Part shown: positions 32,369-41,467 of the stretch, in pieces | How the letters are laid out: each line of letters starts with the position of its first letter | Numbering within the stretch: the first letter of the stretch is position 1 | From: Burkholderiales bacterium | Lineage (GTDB): Bacteria > Pseudomonadota > Gammaproteobacteria > Burkholderiales > SG8-39 | DNA length: 64,000 bases | Assembly: GCA_017880775.1 (NCBI GenBank) | Contig: JADGRQ010000005.1 | Location: 6,094 to 70,093, forward strand | Reading direction: 5' to 3' | Program-made: the position numbers and the translations under genes | Notes under the pieces: model-generated | Told to the model about the DNA's origin: nothing | What the model saw: only the letters and a program-made list of their open reading frames with translations | Database searches by the model: none

Positions 32369-35300
32369 ATGCTTGCTCCCGGTTTCGATCTCCGCTTCGA
32401 AGACCTCTACGCACGCGATGGCCTTGCGCGCGCCGATGAGGCGTTCCTGCGCTTTCTCGGCGAAGCGGATCCCGCACTGCGCGAACGACTGGGAGCGGCG
32501 CGCGCGGCGCCGGATGCGCTTTCATCGCTCGCGGAATCCGAGCTGCTGATCGCGCTGGCGCCGCACCTGGACGATTTCCTCGCGCGACTGTTCGGCATCG
32601 AGGGCGAAGTGCATGCGCTGTCGGCGCAACACAATGCGCTGGCGCCGCTGTACTCGGTCAAACGCCTGTTCGTGCAACGGCGCGCGATGCACAAGGTCAA
32701 ACCGGAGGCGCTGGAGGGTTTCGATCCGGTCGCGGCGGAGCGCGAACTCGAGCGCCGCTTCGGCGAAAAATTCGGCGAACTTGCATTCGCCACGCACGTC
32801 ACCGCGTGGTTGAAGGACGAAGCGGCGCATGCCGAAGCGCTCGATCTCGCGCAGCGTTACGCCGCCTGGGCGTTGTCGACGCCGCAGGGGAAGGCGAAAC
32901 ACCGGTCAGGCGTGCTGTTCAAAACCCCGTCGAAACTCGACATGCTGCGCCTGGTTCCGGTGCAGACGCGAACCGACGAGGGCTTCGACCAGCACGCGCT
33001 GGATGCGCATCACCTGCGTCGCCGCGAAGGATTCGGCCTCACCGACGCCGGGACCGACCTCGCCGGCGCGCTCGACCAGGCGAACTACTGCATCTGGTGC
33101 CACGAACAGGGCAAGGACTCCTGCTCCACGGGACTGAAGGAGAAAGCGGCCAAGAGCGCCGACCCTGCGGTGCCGTCCTCGCCACAGAGATTCAAGCGAT
33201 CGCCGTTCGGCGTGCCACTGGCAGGCTGCCCGCTGCAGGAGAAGATCTCGGAGTTTCATCAGCTCAAGAGCCGCGGCCAGGCGCTTGCCGCGCTCGCGGT
33301 CATCTGCGTGGACAACCCGATGGTGGCCGCGACCGGACACCGTATCTGCAACGACTGCATGAAATCCTGCATCTACCAGAAGCAGGAGCCGGTCAACATC
33401 CCCCAGGCCGAGACCCGCACGCTGAAAGACGTGCTCGAACTGCCGTGGGGGTTCGAGATCTACTCGCTGCTCACGCGCTGGAACCCGCTCAACCTGCGCC
33501 GCCCCGTTCCGCTTGCGCCGTCGGGCAAGAAGGTATTGGTCGTAGGCCTCGGCCCGGCCGGATTCACCGTCGCGCACCACCTGATGAACGACGGGCACGC
33601 CGTGGTCGGCATCGACGGTCTGAAGATCGAACCCCTGCCCGCGGAACTGTCGGGCGCCGACGCGCTCGGGCGACGCATGCCGTTCGGCCCGGTTCGCGAT
33701 GTGCGCGAACTGTACGAGTCGCTCGGCACGCGGGTCATGGCCGGATTCGGCGGCGTGGCGGAATACGGCATCACGGTGCGCTGGGACAAGAACTTCCTGA
33801 AGCTGATCCGCCTGCTGCTGGAACGGCGCCGCGAGTTCGCGATGATGGGCGGCGTGCGCTTCGGCGGCACCGTCACGCTCGAGGATGCATGGTCGATGGG
33901 TTTCGACCATGTGGCGGTGTGCGTCGGTGCCGGCAAGCCGACGGTGCTGGAAATCCCGAACGGGCTCGCCCGCGGCGTGCGGGCGGCGTCGGATTTCCTG
34001 ATGGCGCTGCAGCTGACGGGCGCCGCGAAACCCGATTCGATCGCCAACATGCAGCTGCGCCTGCCAGTGGTCGTCATCGGCGGCGGTCTTACCGCGATCG
34101 ACACGGCCACCGAGTCGCTGGCGTATTACGTCGTGCAGGTCGAGAAATTTCTTCTCCGCTACGAAACGCTGGCCGCCGAGATCGGCGAGCACGCGGTGCG
34201 CGAGACCTGGGACGACCAGGAGCGCGAGATCGGCGAGGAATACCTCGCGCATGCCCGCACCATCCGCAAGGCGCGCGATGCGGCCAAGCTCGACGGGCGC
34301 GAGCCGCGCGTGGTCGAACTGCTGCAGGGCTGGGGCGGCGTGACGATCGCCTACCGGCGCCGCCTCGTCGACAGCCCGTCCTACACGCTGAACCATGAAG
34401 AAGTCGAAAAGGCGCTGGAGGAAGGGATCGTCTTCGCCGAAGACCTGACCCCGTCTTCGGTCGATGTCGACAACTACGGCGCGGTGAAGGGAATGCGCTT
34501 TCGGCACCGGAGCGGCGAAAAATGGCTTCCCGCGCATACGGTGTTCGTCGCAGCGGGCACCCAGCCGAATACGGTCCTCGCGCGCGAGGATGCCCCGCAC
34601 TTCACGCTGGACGGAAAATACTTCGCCGCCTGCGACGAGGAAGGCAAGCCGGCCAAGCCGGAGCCATCCACCTCGAAGCCGGAGACGCCGCGGGTACTGC
34701 TCGCGCGGCACGACGACGGGCGTTTCGTCAGCTACTTCGGCGATGTCCATCCGTCGTATTTCGGCAACGTGGTAAAGGCGATGGGCTCGGCGAAGCAGGG
34801 TTATCCGGTGGTGTCCCGCGTGCTCGGCAAGCGGCCTGCGGAGAACGCCGAGTCCACCGGGCAGTTTTTCGCGCGGCTCGCAGACCGGCTGATCGCGACC
34901 GTCGAGCGGGTCGAACGCCTCACGCCGAACATCGTGGAAGTGGTCGTTCGCGCACCTCTTGCGGCGCTAAAATTCCGGCCTGGACAGTTCTACCGGTTGC
35001 AGAACTTCGAATCGCTGGCGCCGCTCGCGGCCGGCACGCGCATGCAGATGGAGGGCCTCGCGCTCACCGGTGCGTGGGTCGACCCGGACAAGGGACTGGT
35101 CTCGACCATCGTGCTGGAGATGGGCGGCTCGTCCGATCTGTGCGCGATGCTGCAGAAGGGCGAGCCGGTGATCCTGATGGGTCCGACCGGCTCACCAACC
35201 GAAATCGAGCCCGGCGAGACGGTCGTACTGTGCGGCGGGGGCTTGGGCAACGCGGTGCTGTTCTCGATCGGCCAGGCGTTTCGCGCCGCCGGATCGAAGG

Positions 35301-35869
35301 TGCTCTACTTCGCCGGTTACAAGAAGGCGATCGACCGCTACAAGGCGGACGAAATCGAGAACGCCGCCGACGTGGTGGTCTGGTGCTGCGACGAGCAGCC
35401 CGGTTTCAAGCCGCGCCGAACCCAGGACCGCTCGTTCGTGGGCAATATCGTGCAGGCGATGGACGCCTACGCGAGCGGCAGGCTCGGCTCGCGCGTGTTG
35501 CGCCTCGAGGACGCAGACCGCCTGATCGCGATCGGCTCCGACCGGATGATGGCGGCGGTGGCGCGCGCGCGGCACGACGTGCTCAAGGCGCACCTCAAAC
35601 CGAAGCACGTCGCGATCGGCTCGATCAACTCGCCGATGCAATGCATGATGAAGGAAATCTGTGCCCAGTGCCTGCAGCCGCACCGGGATCTCGTCACGGG
35701 CGAGACCAGTTGGGTGTTCTCCTGCTTCAACCAGGACCAGTTGCTCGACAGCGTCGATTTCTCCGCATTGAACGAGCGTCTCAAGCAGAACTCGCTGGCC
35801 GAGAAACTCACCGTCAAGTGGATCCGGCATTGCATGCCGGACCTCAGGAGACAACGCGCTTTCGTGTGA
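32369..35869 (+). CDS. Large multidomain Fe-S flavoprotein: unknown N-domain, GltD-like NAD(P)H/FAD oxidoreductase and PyrK/FNR-like electron-transfer module
   Basis: 1166 aa. Cys clusters ([25 protein letters not shown]). Two dinucleotide folds ([24 protein letters not shown]). An FNR-like RPGQFYRL plus [11 protein letters not shown] region. A C-terminal Cys cluster ([13 protein letters not shown]...SCF) like the PyrK 2Fe-2S site. Confidence 0.75.
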
Positions 35870-36430
35870 TCAGGCCTTCACGCGGCTGCGGTACTCCCCG
35901 GTGCGCGTGTCTATCTCGATCATGTCGCCGGTGCCGCAGAACAGGGGCACCTTCACCTCGAAGCCGGTCTTCAGCTTCGCCGGCTTGAGAACCTTGCCCG
36001 AAGTATCGCCGCGCACCGCGGGTTCGGTGTGGACGATCTGGCGCACAACGGACTGTGGGATGTCCACCGAGATCGGCCGCTCCTCGTAGAGCGTCACCTC
36101 GGCCGGCATGCCCTCTTCGAGGTAATTGAGCGCTTCGCCCATGCCTTCCGCATCCACCTCGTACTGGTTGAACTCCTCGTCCATGAACACATACGAAGGC
36201 TCGGCGAAATATGAGTAGGTGACGTCCTTGCGCTCGAGCATCACCAACTCGAACTTTTCGTCCGCGCGGTAGACCGTTTCGGTCGCGGCGCCCGAGAGCA
36301 GGTTCTTGAGTTTCATCTTGACCACGGACGCGTTGCGGCCGGACTTGCTGAATTCGGCCCTCTGCACCACCAGCGGATTCTTGCCGACCATGATCACGTT
36401 GCCCGAGCGAATTTCCTGTGCGATCTTCAT
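35870..36430 (-). CDS. efp: Elongation factor P (Arg32 type)
   Basis: 186 aa. The loop is SKSGRNAS with Arg at position 32 rather than Lys34. Lies immediately downstream of earP. Confidence 0.96.
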
Positions 36431-36462
36431 GTGCGTTCCAATTTCTGCGTGAACAAAACCGC

Positions 36463-37617
36463 TTATTTTAATCTCTCTTCGCAGAAATGCGCCAGATTTG
36501 CGGCAAGATCGCCGGGCAAGGCCAACGTTGCCGCCCAGCCGCGCGCATGCTGGCGAAGCCTGTCCTGGTGCCCGTTCAGGCTCTCCCAGGCTGCGCGCAT
36601 CAGCCCCGCGGGCGCAGCAGGGTCATTCCACCCGTGCCAGAGCGCGCGCAGCGCAGCCTCCGTCGGGGGCTCGAGGCCCTCACAGTAGATCTCGAGGAAG
36701 GCCTCCAGCTTGACCCGATGGGCGCGCTCCTGCTGGGGATAGATATGCCACACGAATGGCCGCAGAGCCCACTGCGCGCGCACGAAAGAATCCTCTCCGC
36801 GAACGAAATTCCAGTCGCAGGCCCATAGCAGCTCGTCGTAGCGCGGCTGCGGCAAGAATGGCACCCAACGGGCTTCGAGGCTGCCTCGCCTCAGCGTCGA
36901 GCCATCATCGGGGTCGGCCACGCCGAAAAACGCGCTTGCCTGGGGCCTCAGGCTGCTCCGGGGCACGGCGGCGACCACCTGCCGAGGGCTGAGCGCCCAT
37001 ACGTGCATGAGTTCTGCCACGGCCGGATTTTCATAGCCGAACAGCGATACGGCGATCGACCCCTGGTCCGGGGGAGCAAACCCGAGATCCCGCCAGAACG
37101 CGGCTTGCCGCCCCCGGTCGCGCTGGAAGGCATCGCGCCGCGGCTCGAGCGACGCTTCCTTCAATACGCCGCCGGTTCCCGGCACCACGCCCGGAAAGAA
37201 GAAATGGCGCGCTATCGGCAGGCGGGGATGCGGAGACGGCAGGCCATGGTGTCCGACGACCCACAGCTCGGCGCTCAAGTACTCGAGGACGATCCACAAA
37301 GACGGCGGGTCGCGCCGCGCCATCGCAGCGACATAAGCATCCGGCAGGCCGCCGCCGAAAGCATCCACTGCAATGTCCGCCGGCAGGCCGATATCGGACG
37401 CAGCGGACCAATGGCGGATGTCAACCCCGGCGACGGATTGCGCCTCTCGGTCGCGAACCACCTCGGGAAACAACGCGTGCAAGGCATCCAGAGCGTCGAT
37501 CCAGAGCCGCACCCGGGCGCCATGTTCTGCGGCAAGTTGCCGCGCCAGCCGCCAGCACACCGCTGCATCGCCGTAGTTGTCGATCACCCTGCAAAACACG
37601 TCCCACGACCGGGACAT
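36463..37617 (-). CDS. earP: EF-P arginine-32 rhamnosyltransferase EarP (DUF2331 family)
   Basis: 384 aa from ATG 37617. The N-terminus [24 protein letters not shown] is characteristic of EarP. Lies adjacent to an R32-type efp. Confidence 0.8.
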
Positions 37618-37624
37618 GGCCGAC

Positions 37625-38983
37625 TTACGGTTCTTCGCCAGGCGTGGCGGCTGCAAGGCGCTGCTGAAGCCTCTCGATCCGCTTCACCAGCAGGCGCAGG
37701 AAGGACTGGTTGTACTGCACCTGGCACGCAGGCGATGCCCGCGCCAGTGCGCTCGCCTTGATCTCCATTAAAAGCACGGCCGTCGTGGCGGAAATGGTGG
37801 TGGTCCGCGGGGTGCTGCGGTCCTCGAAATAGAGGATCTCGCCGAAGCAGTGGCCGGGCAGGAGCGTTTCGATCGGATAGCCCGCGCGGCTGACGAGTAC
37901 TTCGCCCGACGTGAGAACGAAAAAACCGTCGCCGGCGTCTCCTTCGCGAACCACGATCGCGCCCACGGGCAGGCGATGCCATTGTCCGATGCGCAGCGTT
38001 TCCCAGATCTCTACATCGCCGAAACCACGGAAGAACGGCCACGGACGGAGCGCGCTGAACCTCGCCGTATCGGACAGATCCTGGTCCGGAACATGCAAGT
38101 GCTCGAACAACTGCTCGAGATCGCGCGCGAATTCGTACCAATCGGCGTAACGCTCCTCGCGGCTCTTCGCGAGCGCGCGCAGCACGATGCGGTCGAGCCC
38201 GGCGGGCAGGCCTGGCCGGTGCAGCGAGGGCGGCACCGGATCCATGACGAGGATCTGATACAAAAGGCTTTCGCGAGTCGATGCGTGAAACGGCAGCTTC
38301 CCCGTCAGCAGCTGGTACAGAACCACGCCCAGCGAGTAAATGTCGGTCTGGTGGTTGAGCCGCTTGTCCTCCACCTGCTCCGGCGACATGTAGGCGGGAG
38401 AGCCGATCCCCATCAGGTAGGTGTGTGTCGCTGCCGTGTAGTGGGCAGCCCCGAAATCGCTGATCTTCAGTTCGGTTTCCCGGGCGAGCAGCAGGTTGCC
38501 CGGTTTGATGTCGCAGTGGATGACGCCCTGGTGCTGCGCGTAAGCGAGAGCGAGGCCCGCCTTGAACACGAGTTCGACCACGCGATCGATCGGCAGCAGC
38601 GCATCGAAGCTGCAATGCTTCTCGAGCGTCGTGCCGTCGACGTACTCCATGACGAGGTAGCTCTGGTCCGCGTCGCTGACCGCGTCGAGGATCGCCACGA
38701 TGTGGGGATGCTTGAGCTTGCCCGTGAGTGCAGCTTCGTTCAGGAACAGGCTGTGAAAACGCCGGCGCAGCTCCGCATCGCCCGTCGGATCTCTCTGGAT
38801 GACCTTGATCGCCACGTTACGGCCCGAAAACGGGTCCACCGCCAGATACACCCGGCTGGTCGAACCGCGGCCCAAGGCGCGGATCACCGGGTATTTGCCG
38901 ATCCTCTCTGGCAGCACGTCGCTCATCGGTTCAAAGTGTCTCCGAATGTGTAGGATATGCGCAATTCCCGTTTCGTCAGTCAT
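37625..38983 (-). CDS. Hanks-type Ser/Thr protein kinase fused to a C-terminal cyclic-nucleotide-binding (CAP-ED) domain
   Basis: 452 aa from ATG 38983 (alternative ATG 38926). Kinase motifs: GRGSTSRVY, VAIKVI, HCDIKPGNLLL, DFG, SPAYMSPE. cNMP domain: FFVLTSGEV...CFGEILYFEDRSTPRTTTISA. The upstream 714 codons of the track ORF are the antisense shadow of the DUF349 gene. Confidence 0.85.
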   Translation of the reverse strand: MTDETGIAHILHIRRHFEPMSDVLPERIGKYPVIRALGRGSTSRVYLAVDPFSGRNVAIKVIQRDPTGDAELRRRFHSLFLNEAALTGKLKHPHIVAILDAVSDADQSYLVMEYVDGTTLEKHCSFDALLPIDRVVELVFKAGLALAYAQHQGVIHCDIKPGNLLLARETELKISDFGAAHYTAATHTYLMGIGSPAYMSPEQVEDKRLNHQTDIYSLGVVLYQLLTGKLPFHASTRESLLYQILVMDPVPPSLHRPGLPAGLDRIVLRALAKSREERYADWYEFARDLEQLFEHLHVPDQDLSDTARFSALRPWPFFRGFGDVEIWETLRIGQWHRLPVGAIVVREGDAGDGFFVLTSGEVLVSRAGYPIETLLPGHCFGEILYFEDRSTPRTTTISATTAVLLMEIKASALARASPACQVQYNQSFLRLLVKRIERLQQRLAAATPGEEP

Positions 38984-39145
38984 GTGACGATGTTCACAGG
39001 CCGTTGAGCTGGCCCCCGGCTCGTCTTCCGGCGTTGCCGCGCCACACGGCCGTTCGCGCGGCGTCCGCTTCGCGACTGTGCTACGTTTGCGGGGTGCGGG
39101 CTTCGACCTGGAGACCGTGGTTGTGCAATACGGAGTGAAGAATCG

Positions 39146-41467
39146 ATGAGCTGGCTGCGCAACATGCGCGGCAAGGCCGGCAGCGAAGCGCGCGAACACC
39201 AGGCGGCGGCCGCACGGCCGTCCTCCAAGGCCATTTCGATGCCAGCAGTTGATTGGAGCGGGCTGCGGGAGTCTATTCCCGCAGCCCCATCCGCCGGGGA
39301 GCGCGCGCAGCGCGAGCGCGAACTGGGGCGAGCCTGCGCCGCTCATCGGCAATCGCCGTTGCCCGGAGACGCGCCCGGCGTGTGGACGGAGGCGGTGTGC
39401 TACGCCAACGACAAAGCTGCGGCGACGCAATGGGCCGCCCGGCTGGAGGGCGATGCTTCGCTCGCCGAGGCGGCGGCGCGCTGCCGCTTCGCGGAAGTCC
39501 GTCTCGCCGCAGTGCGACGCATCTCCGACCTCGCGGTACTCAAGCAGCTCGCGGATTCGAGCCGCGAGAAAGACAAGCATGTCTATCGGCACTGCACGGA
39601 TGCGCTCCGTGCGCACCGGCAGAGCGGTGAACGCGCGCGCCGCGCGGCGCAACTCGCGCTCGACCTGCGAGCGCTGCTCGACGCACGACCGGTGGCCGTG
39701 TCGCGCCTGCTGCAGATCGAGAAGGAATTCGCGGTCCTTGGCGAAGACAAGCAGGGACTCGCCGAGTGCGCCGATCTCGTCGCGCAGGCGCAGGCCTGCG
39801 TGCTCGCGGAAACGCGCGCCCAGATCGGGCTGCGTGCCCGTCTCGCCGCGGCCGAGGCGCTGCGTTCGGACGTCGCCGGCGCCGAATCGCCGTCGCGCAT
39901 GAATCTCGAGGCCTGGCGGAGGCGGTACACCGACATCGCCGAGGAAGCGGCTGGCGCTCCTGCATGGCTGGCGAAATTTCCGGCAACGCGCGAATTGGCG
40001 CACGCGCTGCGTGATATCGAATCGCGCCTGGCGGCGCTTGTCCAGGACCTCGAGCGGGCGACGGAACGCGAAAAGGTACTCGCAAGCCTGCCTCCGGTCG
40101 AACAACCGGCGCCGAAGACCCCGAAGCCAGCGACGCGGGAGGTCGATCACGCAGGCGTACAGCGCTCGCTCGACGAACTCGAACGGCATCTGGAGGACGG
40201 CAGGCTCGCGGACGCGGACGGCGTCGCGAGCCGCATCGAGCAGGCAATAGACGGCGCCGCACCGAGAGGGCCGCTTGCGCGGCGCTGGCAGCGCGCGCGG
40301 GCGCAACTGATGCGGCTGCACGGCTGGGCGCGCTGGGGGACGGACCAGGCGCGCGAACATCTGATCGCCGACGCGCAAGCGCTGCTGCACAGCGCGCCGG
40401 GCATCGACGAGCGCGCCAGTGCCGTTCCGGCGCTGCACAAGGAATGGAAGCGCCTCGATGCGCATGGTCCGGCTGCAAAGCCCTTGTGGGAGCGCTTCGA
40501 CAAGGCCCTCGAAGAGGCCTATCGGCCGGTGCGGGAACTGCGCACGGCCGAGGCGCTGCGGCACGAGGCGGCACGCGCCGCGAAAGCGGCGCTGTGTGAC
40601 GCCTGGGAAGCGTGGCTTGCAGAGTTTTCCGTGGCACCCCCCGACTACCGGGCGCTGGCGGCGAAACGCGACGAGATCACCGCGAAGTGGCGCGCCGGCG
40701 CGATGGCGGGTTTTCGCGACGAGCGGAAGTTGCGCAAGCGGCTGGACGCGCTGCTCAAGCGTATCGATGTGCAGGTGGAGGAAGCGCAAGCGAAGGAGAT
40801 CGCGCGCCGCGAGCAACTGCTTGCCGCAGCCGAGGGCCTGCGCGATGCCCCGGATATTGCCCGGGCCGTGAACGAGGCCAAGTCCCTGCAGTCGCGCTGG
40901 AAGGACGAGGCCGGCGTCGTGCGGCTGCGCCACGGCGCGGAGCAGACGCTGTGGCAGCGCTTCCGCGCCGCGTGCGATGCGGTCTTTGCCCGCCGCGATG
41001 CGGAGCGAACTGCACAGGCGGCACAGCGCGAGCAGCGCATGCAGGCCCTCCAGGATGAGAAGCGGGCTCGCGATCTCAAGCGGCGGGAAGAGCAGGAAAT
41101 CGAGTTGCTGCGCAAGGCCAGGCACGCAAACCGTTTCGCACTGATGGCCGAGAAGGCGGCGCGCGCCGACCCCTCAGTCAACCCCTCGGTCGCGGCCGTG
41201 GCGCTCGAGCAAGGCCGCGCCAGGCGCGCGGCACTGCTCATCGACCTGGAAATCGCGCTCGAGCTGCCCACGCCTGAGACAGATGCAGCCGCGCGCCGCG
41301 CGCGCTCCCTCGTCCGGCTGCAGGACCGCTTCCGCGGAAACAGCACCGCGCCCCAGGATCCGGAGGCGATGGTCGCGCAGTGGTACGCGGTTGCGGCGAT
41401 GCCCGATGCGGAGCAGACGATGCGCATGGCGGCCATAGTGCAGCGGCTGCTCGAGCGGACGCGCTGA
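39146..41467 (+). CDS. DUF349 domain-containing protein (repetitive helical protein)
   Basis: 773 aa with a GGAG RBS. The DUF349-type motif recurs (HKEWKRLDAHGPAAKPLWERFDKALEEAY; QSRWKDEAGVVRLRHGAEQTLWQRFRAACDAVF). Confidence 0.7.
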   Translation: MSWLRNMRGKAGSEAREHQAAAARPSSKAISMPAVDWSGLRESIPAAPSAGERAQRERELGRACAAHRQSPLPGDAPGVWTEAVCYANDKAAATQWAARLEGDASLAEAAARCRFAEVRLAAVRRISDLAVLKQLADSSREKDKHVYRHCTDALRAHRQSGERARRAAQLALDLRALLDARPVAVSRLLQIEKEFAVLGEDKQGLAECADLVAQAQACVLAETRAQIGLRARLAAAEALRSDVAGAESPSRMNLEAWRRRYTDIAEEAAGAPAWLAKFPATRELAHALRDIESRLAALVQDLERATEREKVLASLPPVEQPAPKTPKPATREVDHAGVQRSLDELERHLEDGRLADADGVASRIEQAIDGAAPRGPLARRWQRARAQLMRLHGWARWGTDQAREHLIADAQALLHSAPGIDERASAVPALHKEWKRLDAHGPAAKPLWERFDKALEEAYRPVRELRTAEALRHEAARAAKAALCDAWEAWLAEFSVAPPDYRALAAKRDEITAKWRAGAMAGFRDERKLRKRLDALLKRIDVQVEEAQAKEIARREQLLAAAEGLRDAPDIARAVNEAKSLQSRWKDEAGVVRLRHGAEQTLWQRFRAACDAVFARRDAERTAQAAQREQRMQALQDEKRARDLKRREEQEIELLRKARHANRFALMAEKAARADPSVNPSVAAVALEQGRARRAALLIDLEIALELPTPETDAAARRARSLVRLQDRFRGNSTAPQDPEAMVAQWYAVAAMPDAEQTMRMAAIVQRLLERTR

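Follow-up and report, generated by a model that had tools for sequence, protein, structure and literature searches.

A probable lineage-specific fusion of a cNMP-domain Ser/Thr kinase gene with earP-efp in one branch of uncultured Burkholderiales

A gene encoding a Ser/Thr protein kinase with a cyclic-nucleotide-binding (cNMP) domain lies immediately upstream of earP and efp in the Burkholderiales DNA that we have analyzed (64,000 nucleotides of contig JADGRQ010000005.1, assembly GCA_017880775.1, referred to below as the window). The most plausible explanation, to which we assign a probability of roughly 0.8, is a lineage-specific operon fusion, the kinase not being a dedicated regulator of EarP or EF-P. 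We surveyed about 100 other EarP loci (18 from relatives, 79 from the closest species-level genomes, partly overlapping the 18, and 7 from a class-level sample), and a kinase was found beside earP only in this genome and in that of its nearest sibling. Because it is confined to two siblings, the adjacency reads as a recent rearrangement and not as a regulatory partnership, and the comparative evidence points to the neighbourhood having arisen recently and by accident, within a single small group of uncultured Burkholderiales. The features of the locus are the following.

32369..35869, plus strand: gene of an Fe-S flavoprotein of 1166 aa, convergent with efp (Pfam Pyr_redox_2, Fer4_20)
35870..36430, minus strand: efp, elongation factor P of the EarP type, 186 aa, with Arg32 (TIGR00038 and NF001810 above their cut-offs)
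36431..36462, minus strand: earP-efp spacer of 32 nt with a GGAA ribosome-binding-like element (from the sequence)
36463..37617, minus strand: earP, EF-P arginine-32 rhamnosyltransferase, 384 aa (PF10093, TIGR03837)
36465..36470, minus strand: candidate -10 hexamer TAAAAT for efp, overlapping the last earP codons and the stop (conservation across 75 loci)
37618..37624, minus strand: spacer of 7 nt between the kinase stop and the earP ATG, without a canonical Shine-Dalgarno sequence (comparison with 13 relatives)
37625..38983, minus strand: gene of the Ser/Thr protein kinase with C-terminal cNMP-binding domain (Pfam Pkinase and cNMP_binding)
37739..37975, minus strand: cyclic-nucleotide-binding (CAP-ED) domain, residues 337-415, with phosphate-binding cassette FGEILYFEDRSTPRTTTISA (PF00027)
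38090..38887, minus strand: Hanks-type catalytic domain, about residues 33-298 (Pfam residues 33-243, NCBIfam PknB-like residues 29-298)
38983..38998, no strand assigned: perfect CRP-type palindrome TGTGA-N6-TCACA touching the ATG at 38983 (genome motif count)
38984..39145, no strand assigned: divergent intergenic region between the kinase and DUF349 genes (blastn, 38967-39131 unmatched in the third species of the genus)
39146..41467, plus strand: gene of a DUF349 protein of 773 aa, divergent from the kinase (Pfam DUF349, 1.4e-14)

The kinase reading frame ends with a TAA at 37627-37625 and has in-frame ATGs at 38983 (452 aa) and 38926 (433 aa). Comparison of the start region with the nearest sibling (G001) and the third species of the genus (G002) speaks both for and against the longer form, two synonymous changes in the FEP codons being set against a fully conserved stretch, CATATCCTACAC, which uses the rare codon CTA. 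The protein belongs to the Pkinase family (PF00069, E=2.9e-49, 168.3 bits against a cut-off of 31.7), and the sequence-only reading had correctly described its catalytic motifs, VAIK, HCDIKPGN, DFG and SPE, which begin at residues 57, 156, 176 and 200 of the 452-aa form. None of the catalytic residues (Lys, Asp, Asn, DFG) is missing, and SPE stands as the APE-like motif. The kinase is of the non-RD type, with HCD replacing HRD in the catalytic loop; HCD is common to the orthologs in G001, G002 and L111, and paralogs on contigs C35 and C38 carry HRD. The fusion to a CAP-ED domain, also claimed before, holds as well (PF00027, 47.2 bits against a cut-off of 27.5, E=2.2e-12), with FGE at residue 380 and PRTTTISA at 392. 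We take these two motifs to match the cassette of PKA and CAP, with its conserved Gly-Glu and the Arg-Thr/Ala contacting the cyclic phosphate, and judged by sequence the phosphate-binding cassette looks intact. The product is a soluble non-RD Hanks kinase, the activity of which is presumably gated by the C-terminal cNMP domain. This genome has 15 Hanks-kinase matches, among them three full-length copies with both domains (the one described here and two paralogs). Nothing in the comparative data points to EarP or EF-P as a substrate of the kinase.

Among solved structures the best match is the kinase domain of Mycobacterium tuberculosis PknB (e.g. 3f61, 1mru; E=1e-47, residues 30-293), with which the catalytic domain aligns and all catalytic residues are kept. 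Unlike PknB, the protein has neither a transmembrane segment nor PASTA repeats, has the HCD loop of a non-RD kinase and carries a C-terminal cNMP sensor. Assignment to the PknB/Stk1 PASTA kinases was rejected, the equivalog model NF033483 giving 261 bits against a cut-off of 450 and matching through the kinase domain only (model positions 7-274 of 563). The combination of a Ser/Thr kinase with a cNMP-binding domain recalls the eukaryotic cyclic-nucleotide-dependent kinases (PKG and the PKA holoenzyme), and apicomplexan PKG kinase domains appear among the PDB matches with E values of about 1e-31. However, the order is reversed, with a single C-terminal cNMP domain here and tandem N-terminal domains in PKG, and we found no sign of orthology with PKG or PKA.

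The two downstream genes form an EarP module. EarP, read from the ATG at 37617 to the TAA at 36465-36463, is a member of both PF10093 (E=1.9e-135, 452 bits) and the equivalog family TIGR03837 (456.7 bits against a cut-off of 347). The invariant residues of the enzyme are D13, D17 and E273 in Pseudomonas putida numbering (PMC5615199); the two Asp are found at identical positions, and the motif RGEDS starting at residue 273 places the equivalent of E273 at Glu275. EF-P, with its ATG at 36430 and its stop at 35872-35870, scores 212.7 bits with TIGR00038 (cut-off 185.8) and has all three Pfam domains (KOW, OB and C-terminal), and its Arg32 sits in the beta3-beta4 loop, SKSGRNA. A search for RmlC and RmlD of the dTDP-rhamnose pathway gave an RmlC homolog at C69:68352 and RmlD-type homologs on contig C68. 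In the full length of EarP, these residues, the adjacent efp with Arg32 and the RmlC and RmlD-type genes, the module is like those of Shewanella oneidensis, P. putida, P. aeruginosa and Neisseria (GT104). What sets this genome and its sibling apart is that earP, placed 7 nt behind a kinase gene, is without a 5' region and ribosome-binding site of its own.

In the minus-strand order kinase, earP, efp, both gaps noted from the sequence could be confirmed, 7 nt from the kinase TAA to the earP ATG and 32 nt between earP and efp. The efp stop directly abuts that of the convergent flavoprotein gene, with 0 bases between. The sibling metagenome-assembled genome (MAG) has, on its contig JBGOTT010000121, the same gene order and the same 7-nt gap, and a kinase 96% identical to this one. 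Between the two genomes kinase, earP and efp are all intact and under purifying selection, with dN/dS of 0.24, 0.24 and 0.16, respectively.

Beyond this pair, no locus that we examined has the arrangement. The other EarP loci of the family and order (the third species of the genus and 17 relatives) gave 0/18 with a kinase beside earP. Of the 80 closest EarP loci from species-level genomes, L031, which is the sibling itself, was the only one with a kinase within 6 kb; the 72 others for which 1.5 kb or more of upstream sequence was available had none. A class-level sample of 300 genomes contained only 7 further EarP loci, with no kinase in any (0/7), and of 80 metagenome contigs encoding relatives of the kinase (the closest 62% identical) none carried earP or efp. 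Among 41 relatives, full-length homologs with kinase and cNMP domains occur in 32 and EarP in 23, both together in 14, the kinase family alone in 18 and EarP alone in 9, that is, without positive co-occurrence. The synteny survey across EarP-bearing relatives thus limits the adjacency to two genomes, and kinase-earP-efp is not a conserved operon. The sequence-only reading had allowed that a link between kinase and EarP would fall if the adjacency were unique to this genome and earP had an internal promoter; such a restriction of the adjacency is essentially what we find, the nearest sibling being the one addition. As a separate observation, one of the 18 family and order loci (G014) has a kinase fragment 13 kb from earP on the opposite strand, the only other kinase match in that set.

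A way to understand how the genes came together is provided by the third species of the genus, where an ortholog of the kinase lies in the same neighbourhood and earP-efp on another contig. The window is collinear with contig C59 of that genome from 15 to 58 kb, except for 35870-37618, which has its counterpart on contig C60, the match being bounded exactly by the efp stop and the earP ATG. In that genome, the gene immediately after the flavoprotein ortholog is the one for DUF349 and not efp; the kinase and DUF349 genes, which are neighbours in all three genomes, stand there in the opposite order. Between genera only the earP-efp block is conserved. The gene upstream of earP is in many loci that of an HI0933-like flavoprotein and in the third species that of a periplasmic binding protein, both divergent; in L042, L051 and L053 it is a same-strand ABC permease gene about 30-36 nt away, and in L048 (an unassigned ORF) and L058 (HMGL-like) a same-strand gene that overlaps earP. 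Thus, the upstream neighbour of EarP modules varies and earP-efp behaves as a mobile two-gene unit with flanks changing between genera; horizontal transfer of earP together with efp has been described (PMC12931083). In the search for outgroups that could polarize the rearrangement, a DUF349 ortholog was found only in the genus and in G012, and the flavoprotein neighbourhood was not conserved outside the genus. Since the flanking neighbourhoods are not conserved in outgroups, the argument for the direction of the event is one of parsimony, together with the loss of the ribosome-binding site.

On this basis, we propose that the earP-efp module was relocated in the ancestor shared by this species and its nearest sibling, as a segment reaching from the start codon of earP to the stop codon of efp and no further, and that it came to lie between the flavoprotein gene and one of several genes for cNMP-domain kinases, the kinase and DUF349 genes being reshuffled locally. 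The earP gene lost its own upstream region together with its ribosome-binding site. Its transcription now most likely starts at the promoter region of the kinase (38984-39145), and its translation most likely proceeds by termination-reinitiation coupling to the kinase reading frame. As for efp, it keeps the conserved -10-like element and probably its own transcription start about 25 nt before the ATG, and would also receive any read-through from upstream.

The kinase-earP junction agrees with these proposals. In 13 close relatives with the same MSRSW start, GGAG or GAGG is found 5-8 nt before the earP ATG; this ribosome-binding site is lost here, so translational coupling of earP to the kinase reading frame is likely. 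Co-transcription of the two genes is plausible because the 7-nt gap has no convincing terminator: a scan of 35500-39500 gave 3 terminator-like matches against 2.9 expected from shuffled sequence, none convincing in the gap. An Rfam scan of 35400-39400 gave no match at E<=1. The intergenic region upstream of the kinase (38984-39145) presumably holds a candidate promoter for kinase and earP.

The tight packing might also hide three independent units and no operon at all, with a promoter of earP inside the 3' part of the kinase gene and another of efp, an arrangement that we consider unlikely. Promoters within coding sequences are common, and efp carries such a candidate inside earP. A scan for consensus sigma-70 sites in 35500-39500 found none, not even upstream of the kinase, and is uninformative in this GC-rich genome; with that region blank too, the scan is silent on an internal promoter. 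Against separate units, the absence from earP of the ribosome-binding site of its relatives is what would be expected if ribosomes terminate 7 nt upstream, and there is no terminator between the genes. Moreover, the kinase C-terminus aligns to its very end with the ortholog of the third species, so no former upstream sequence of earP survives at the junction.

If the kinase and earP do share expression, as in the fusion that we favor, the question is whether this has a regulatory meaning. The sequence-only reading saw in the spacing a link from second-messenger sensing to EF-P rhamnosylation. In its strong form, there would be a genuine lineage-specific regulation in which the cNMP-sensing kinase acts on EF-P or EarP by phosphorylation, or controls the amount of EarP through a shared transcript, and the translation of polyproline would follow a second messenger. 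The 7-nt junction and the lost ribosome-binding site would tie EarP synthesis to the kinase reading frame, the cNMP-binding cassette looks intact, and two species keep the arrangement with the three genes under purifying selection. There is also one described case, the only kinase-EF-P link found in our literature search, of a Hanks kinase acting on EF-P: in Streptococcus suis an STK-dependent phosphorylation of EF-P at Ser148 and Thr176 was reported in 2025 (PMC12595652). It makes outdated the earlier statement that no described connection between eukaryotic-like kinases and EF-P was known to the reader, and might be counted as a precedent against a mere chance fusion. However, the S. suis enzyme is a PASTA-type STK of a Gram-positive, its EF-P is not of the EarP type, the genes are not reported as adjacent and no cNMP is involved, and the search found no described link of Hanks kinases to EarP or of cNMP signalling to EF-P. 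Regulation of this kind appears to us distinctly improbable. Conservation ends with the two siblings, the third species having its kinase ortholog apart from earP-efp; the kinase family has multiple copies and also occurs in 18 relatives that have no EarP; other lineages have earP-efp fused behind unrelated genes; and efp keeps a promoter-like element of its own. Genomic adjacency is in general a weak predictor of Hanks-kinase substrates. With no positive co-occurrence of kinase and EarP and no metagenome case either, the functional link that the spacing had suggested is not borne out.

A fusion of accidental origin might still have been put to use. The arrangement has persisted in two species at a synonymous divergence of 0.09-0.23 with the three genes intact, so it is at least tolerated and could be advantageous, and the loss of the ribosome-binding site would make the output of EarP depend on the expression of the kinase gene, a real regulatory consequence even if accidental. 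In the full version, the promoter and translation of the cNMP-gated kinase gene would set EarP and hence rhamnosylated EF-P, the kinase might phosphorylate EF-P, and a second messenger would tune the translation of polyproline; by analogy with the case above this can be imagined, and we give it very little credence. The palindrome at the kinase start would fit a cAMP-responsive transcription of the unit. The 4.3-Mb genome contains this one perfect copy, against a chance expectation of 1.4, and the site is kept in the sibling and not in the third species; such a candidate site is a lead and not evidence. Were the kinase to control EarP or EF-P, this would be the first link of cyclic nucleotides to the activation of a translation elongation factor in Gram-negatives. 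As a fusion, the locus offers a clean case of a gene of an essential pathway, earP, that loses its own expression signals and comes to depend on a captured upstream gene, here a signalling kinase, as against the ABC permease or HMGL-like genes at other earP loci.

That the adjacency is an artefact of assembly or binning, for example a chimeric contig, can be rejected in spite of the fragmentation of the MAG (88 contigs) and its unusually tight junctions (0 nt after efp, 7 nt before earP), because an independently assembled sibling MAG carries the same order and the same 7-nt junction (94.6% DNA identity over 8.7 kb) and both flanks are collinear with the third species.

The promoter-like element of efp is strongly conserved across EarP loci. 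One of the hexamers TAAAAT, TATAAT or TAGAAT lies over the earP stop in 66/75 loci, compared to 0/75 at the efp stop and 0.9% in random windows. It occurs in three different registers relative to the earP stop codon and is therefore independent of the reading frame, and from its end to the efp ATG the median distance across loci is 36 nt. Probably, efp has its own promoter at this hexamer and the 32-nt spacer is its 5' leader. Since the conserved element is kept in this genome, the supply of EF-P is probably not tied to the promoter of the kinase. The hexamer might also answer how a high expression of efp is possible downstream of the gene of a low-abundance enzyme.

The kinase gene, earP and efp follow one another on the minus strand of the window, which is C74:6094-70093 in a 4.3-Mb MAG of 88 contigs (G000). 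The layout claimed in the sequence-only reading, a kinase with a cNMP-binding domain 7 nt before earP and efp 32 nt after it, was confirmed in every detail by coordinates, profiles and motifs:

37625-38983, minus strand: kinase gene (stop codon TAA, 37627-37625), for a soluble Ser/Thr kinase of Hanks type (Pfam Pkinase, E=2.9e-49) that has a cyclic-nucleotide-binding domain at its C-terminus (PF00027; score 47.2 bits, cut-off 27.5)
37617-36463, minus strand: earP, 7 nt downstream of the kinase gene, above the TIGR03837 equivalog cut-off
36470-36465, minus strand: -10-like hexamer overlapping the earP stop codon
36430-35870, minus strand: efp, 32 nt beyond earP, encoding an EF-P with Arg32

Among solved structures, the kinase is closest to the kinase domain of M. 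tuberculosis PknB (E=1e-47). The catalytic motifs VAIK, HCDIKPGN, DFG and SPE are all found, as is the phosphate-binding cassette FGE...PRTTTISA of the cNMP domain (FGK in place of FGE in the ortholog of G002, the third species of the genus). A survey of domain architectures among Planctomycetota kinases notes cNMP-binding domains joined to bacterial Ser/Thr kinases (PMC11032199). Since its catalytic loop (38510-38520, minus strand) reads HCD and not HRD, the earP-adjacent enzyme is a non-RD kinase; HCD is common to the orthologs in G002, in the nearest sibling MAG (G001) and on a metagenome contig (L111), and HRD is found in both other full-length kinase+cNMP paralogs of G000 (C35:55785-57056 and C38:79829-81076). 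Two candidate starts, ATG 38983 (452 aa) and ATG 38926 (433 aa), are both compatible with the comparative data. The former is touched by a perfect CRP-type palindrome, TGTGA-N6-TCACA (38983-38998), the sole perfect copy in the genome (chance expectation 1.4), which is kept in G001 and of which a single half-site is left in G002. The earP product has the invariant D13 and D17 and the equivalent of E273 (residues as defined in PMC5615199), and RmlC- and RmlD-type genes are located elsewhere in the same genome.

We have compared the coordinates of kinase homologs and EarP in 41 relatives and searched the DNA around each EarP gene by tblastn. Synteny of the trio among EarP loci, proposed as a check in the sequence-only reading, did not extend beyond two siblings: the order was found only in G000 and G001, whose kinases are 96% identical and whose 7-nt kinase-earP junctions are the same. 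G002, whose kinase is 74% identical, carries earP-efp on contig C60 and the kinase ortholog on C59. None of the 17 other EarP loci of the relatives has a kinase beside earP; at one, a fragment of a kinase occurs on the opposite strand at a distance of 13 kb. Among the closest 80 EarP loci of species-level genomes, only that of G001 (L031) lies within 6 kb of a kinase; no kinase was detected at the 72 others having at least 1.5 kb of upstream sequence, nor at 7 class-level EarP loci, and none of 80 metagenome contigs encoding kinase relatives carried earP or efp.

The adjacency, confined to these two sibling species, appears to have arisen recently, when a mobile earP-efp module was rearranged. 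By blastn, the window is collinear with contig C59 of G002 from 15 to 58 kb with two exceptions. The segment 35870-37618 matches contig C60 instead, its ends falling exactly on the efp stop codon and the earP start codon, and the kinase and DUF349 genes are swapped in order. G002 thus reads flavoprotein, DUF349, kinase (reverse strand), XDH-like operon, and the window flavoprotein, efp, earP, kinase (these three reverse), DUF349, XDH-like operon. For 165 nt upstream of the kinase gene (38967-39131), blastn gives no match in G002. The convergent flavoprotein gene (1166 aa; stop TGA 35867-35869) and efp (stop 35872-35870) end on directly adjacent bases, leaving no room for a terminator between them. 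The flanks of the trio are not conserved outside the genus, so that outgroups do not fix the direction of the event; as earP-efp adjoins either flank in no other genome, we read the G000/G001 arrangement as derived. Synonymous divergence between G000 and G001 (35870-38926 against L011/L031) is 0.085 for the kinase gene, 0.16 for efp and 0.23 for earP, and 0.12 and 0.14 for the SDR and DUF349 genes, an unevenness that may reflect recombination or differing codon constraints.

Across genera, conservation is limited to the earP-efp block and the flanks vary; joint horizontal transfer of both genes has been discussed (PMC12931083). Upstream of earP lies a divergent HI0933-like flavoprotein gene at many loci, a divergent periplasmic binding-protein gene in G002, and on the same strand an ABC-permease gene at a gap of ~30-36 nt (L042, L051 and L053), an overlapping ORF of no assigned family (L048) or an overlapping HMGL-like gene (L058). 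Such varied, tight neighbours make the packing of earP behind unrelated genes a recurrent fate and not a signal of shared function. At six loci with the divergent flavoprotein gene (L033, L036, L039, L040, L041 and L044), earP is preceded at ~45 nt by a conserved stretch, tcacgatgacgtcgaagcgcaagcgg.cattctactGGAG, which the window lacks and which in that group probably represents the ancestral promoter and leader of earP.

A single transcript for the trio had also been suggested, and for its first part this is reasonable. GGAG or GAGG precedes the earP ATG by 5-8 nt in 13 close relatives whose EarP begins MSRSW, and is missing in G000 and G001 (37618-37640, minus strand: ...GGCGAAGAACCGTAAGTCGGCC-ATG). 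This loss and the short gap of 7 nt, with no credible terminator between the two genes, favour a shared kinase-earP transcript, on which earP translation would begin by termination-reinitiation at the junction. For efp the suggestion is qualified, as efp appears to keep its own promoter. We have surveyed 75 earP-efp loci from the set of 80 (L031-L110), in genomes of 60-70% GC, and in 66 the last codons of earP and its stop form TAAAAT, TATAAT or TAGAAT (median 36 nt from hexamer end to efp ATG); the same search gave 0/75 at the efp stop and a rate of 0.9% in windows drawn at random from these loci. The hexamer is found in three registers with respect to the stop codon, and in G000 is built on AAA and TTA, a rare codon (2 of 310 Leu codons), which argues that the constraint lies on the DNA rather than the protein. 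The hexamer probably serves as a conserved -10 element for an efp promoter within earP, in which case the kinase promoter is probably not the sole, nor even the main, control of EF-P expression.

The proposed tie between cNMP/kinase signalling and EF-P rhamnosylation found no support, given an adjacency restricted to two siblings, a probable separate efp promoter, a multi-copy kinase family and its phyletic independence from EarP. G000 has three full-length kinase+cNMP copies (C74, C35 and C38) among 15 Hanks-kinase matches, making the family multi-copy, and tandem pairs (G034:C69:27559-30146, G012:C12:294974-297566, G022:C106:60930-63483 and L112) show its active duplication in these Burkholderiales. 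We found no literature report in which Hanks kinases or cNMP signalling are tied to EarP or to rhamnosylation; in Streptococcus suis, STK phosphorylates EF-P itself, at Ser148 and Thr176 (PMC12595652). Between G000 and G001, dN/dS is 0.24 for both the kinase gene and earP, and 0.16 for efp; to judge from these sequences, each gene of the trio is functional and their arrangement at least tolerated. A lineage-specific use of the kinase-earP-efp fusion is improbable. Full-length kinase+cNMP homologs are present in 32 of the 41 genomes and EarP in 23; both occur in 14, the kinase family without EarP in 18 and EarP without the family in 9, so the family has no phyletic tie to EarP. Within family f1, EarP is patchy (11/25 genomes), and EF-P activation must therefore differ between close genera.
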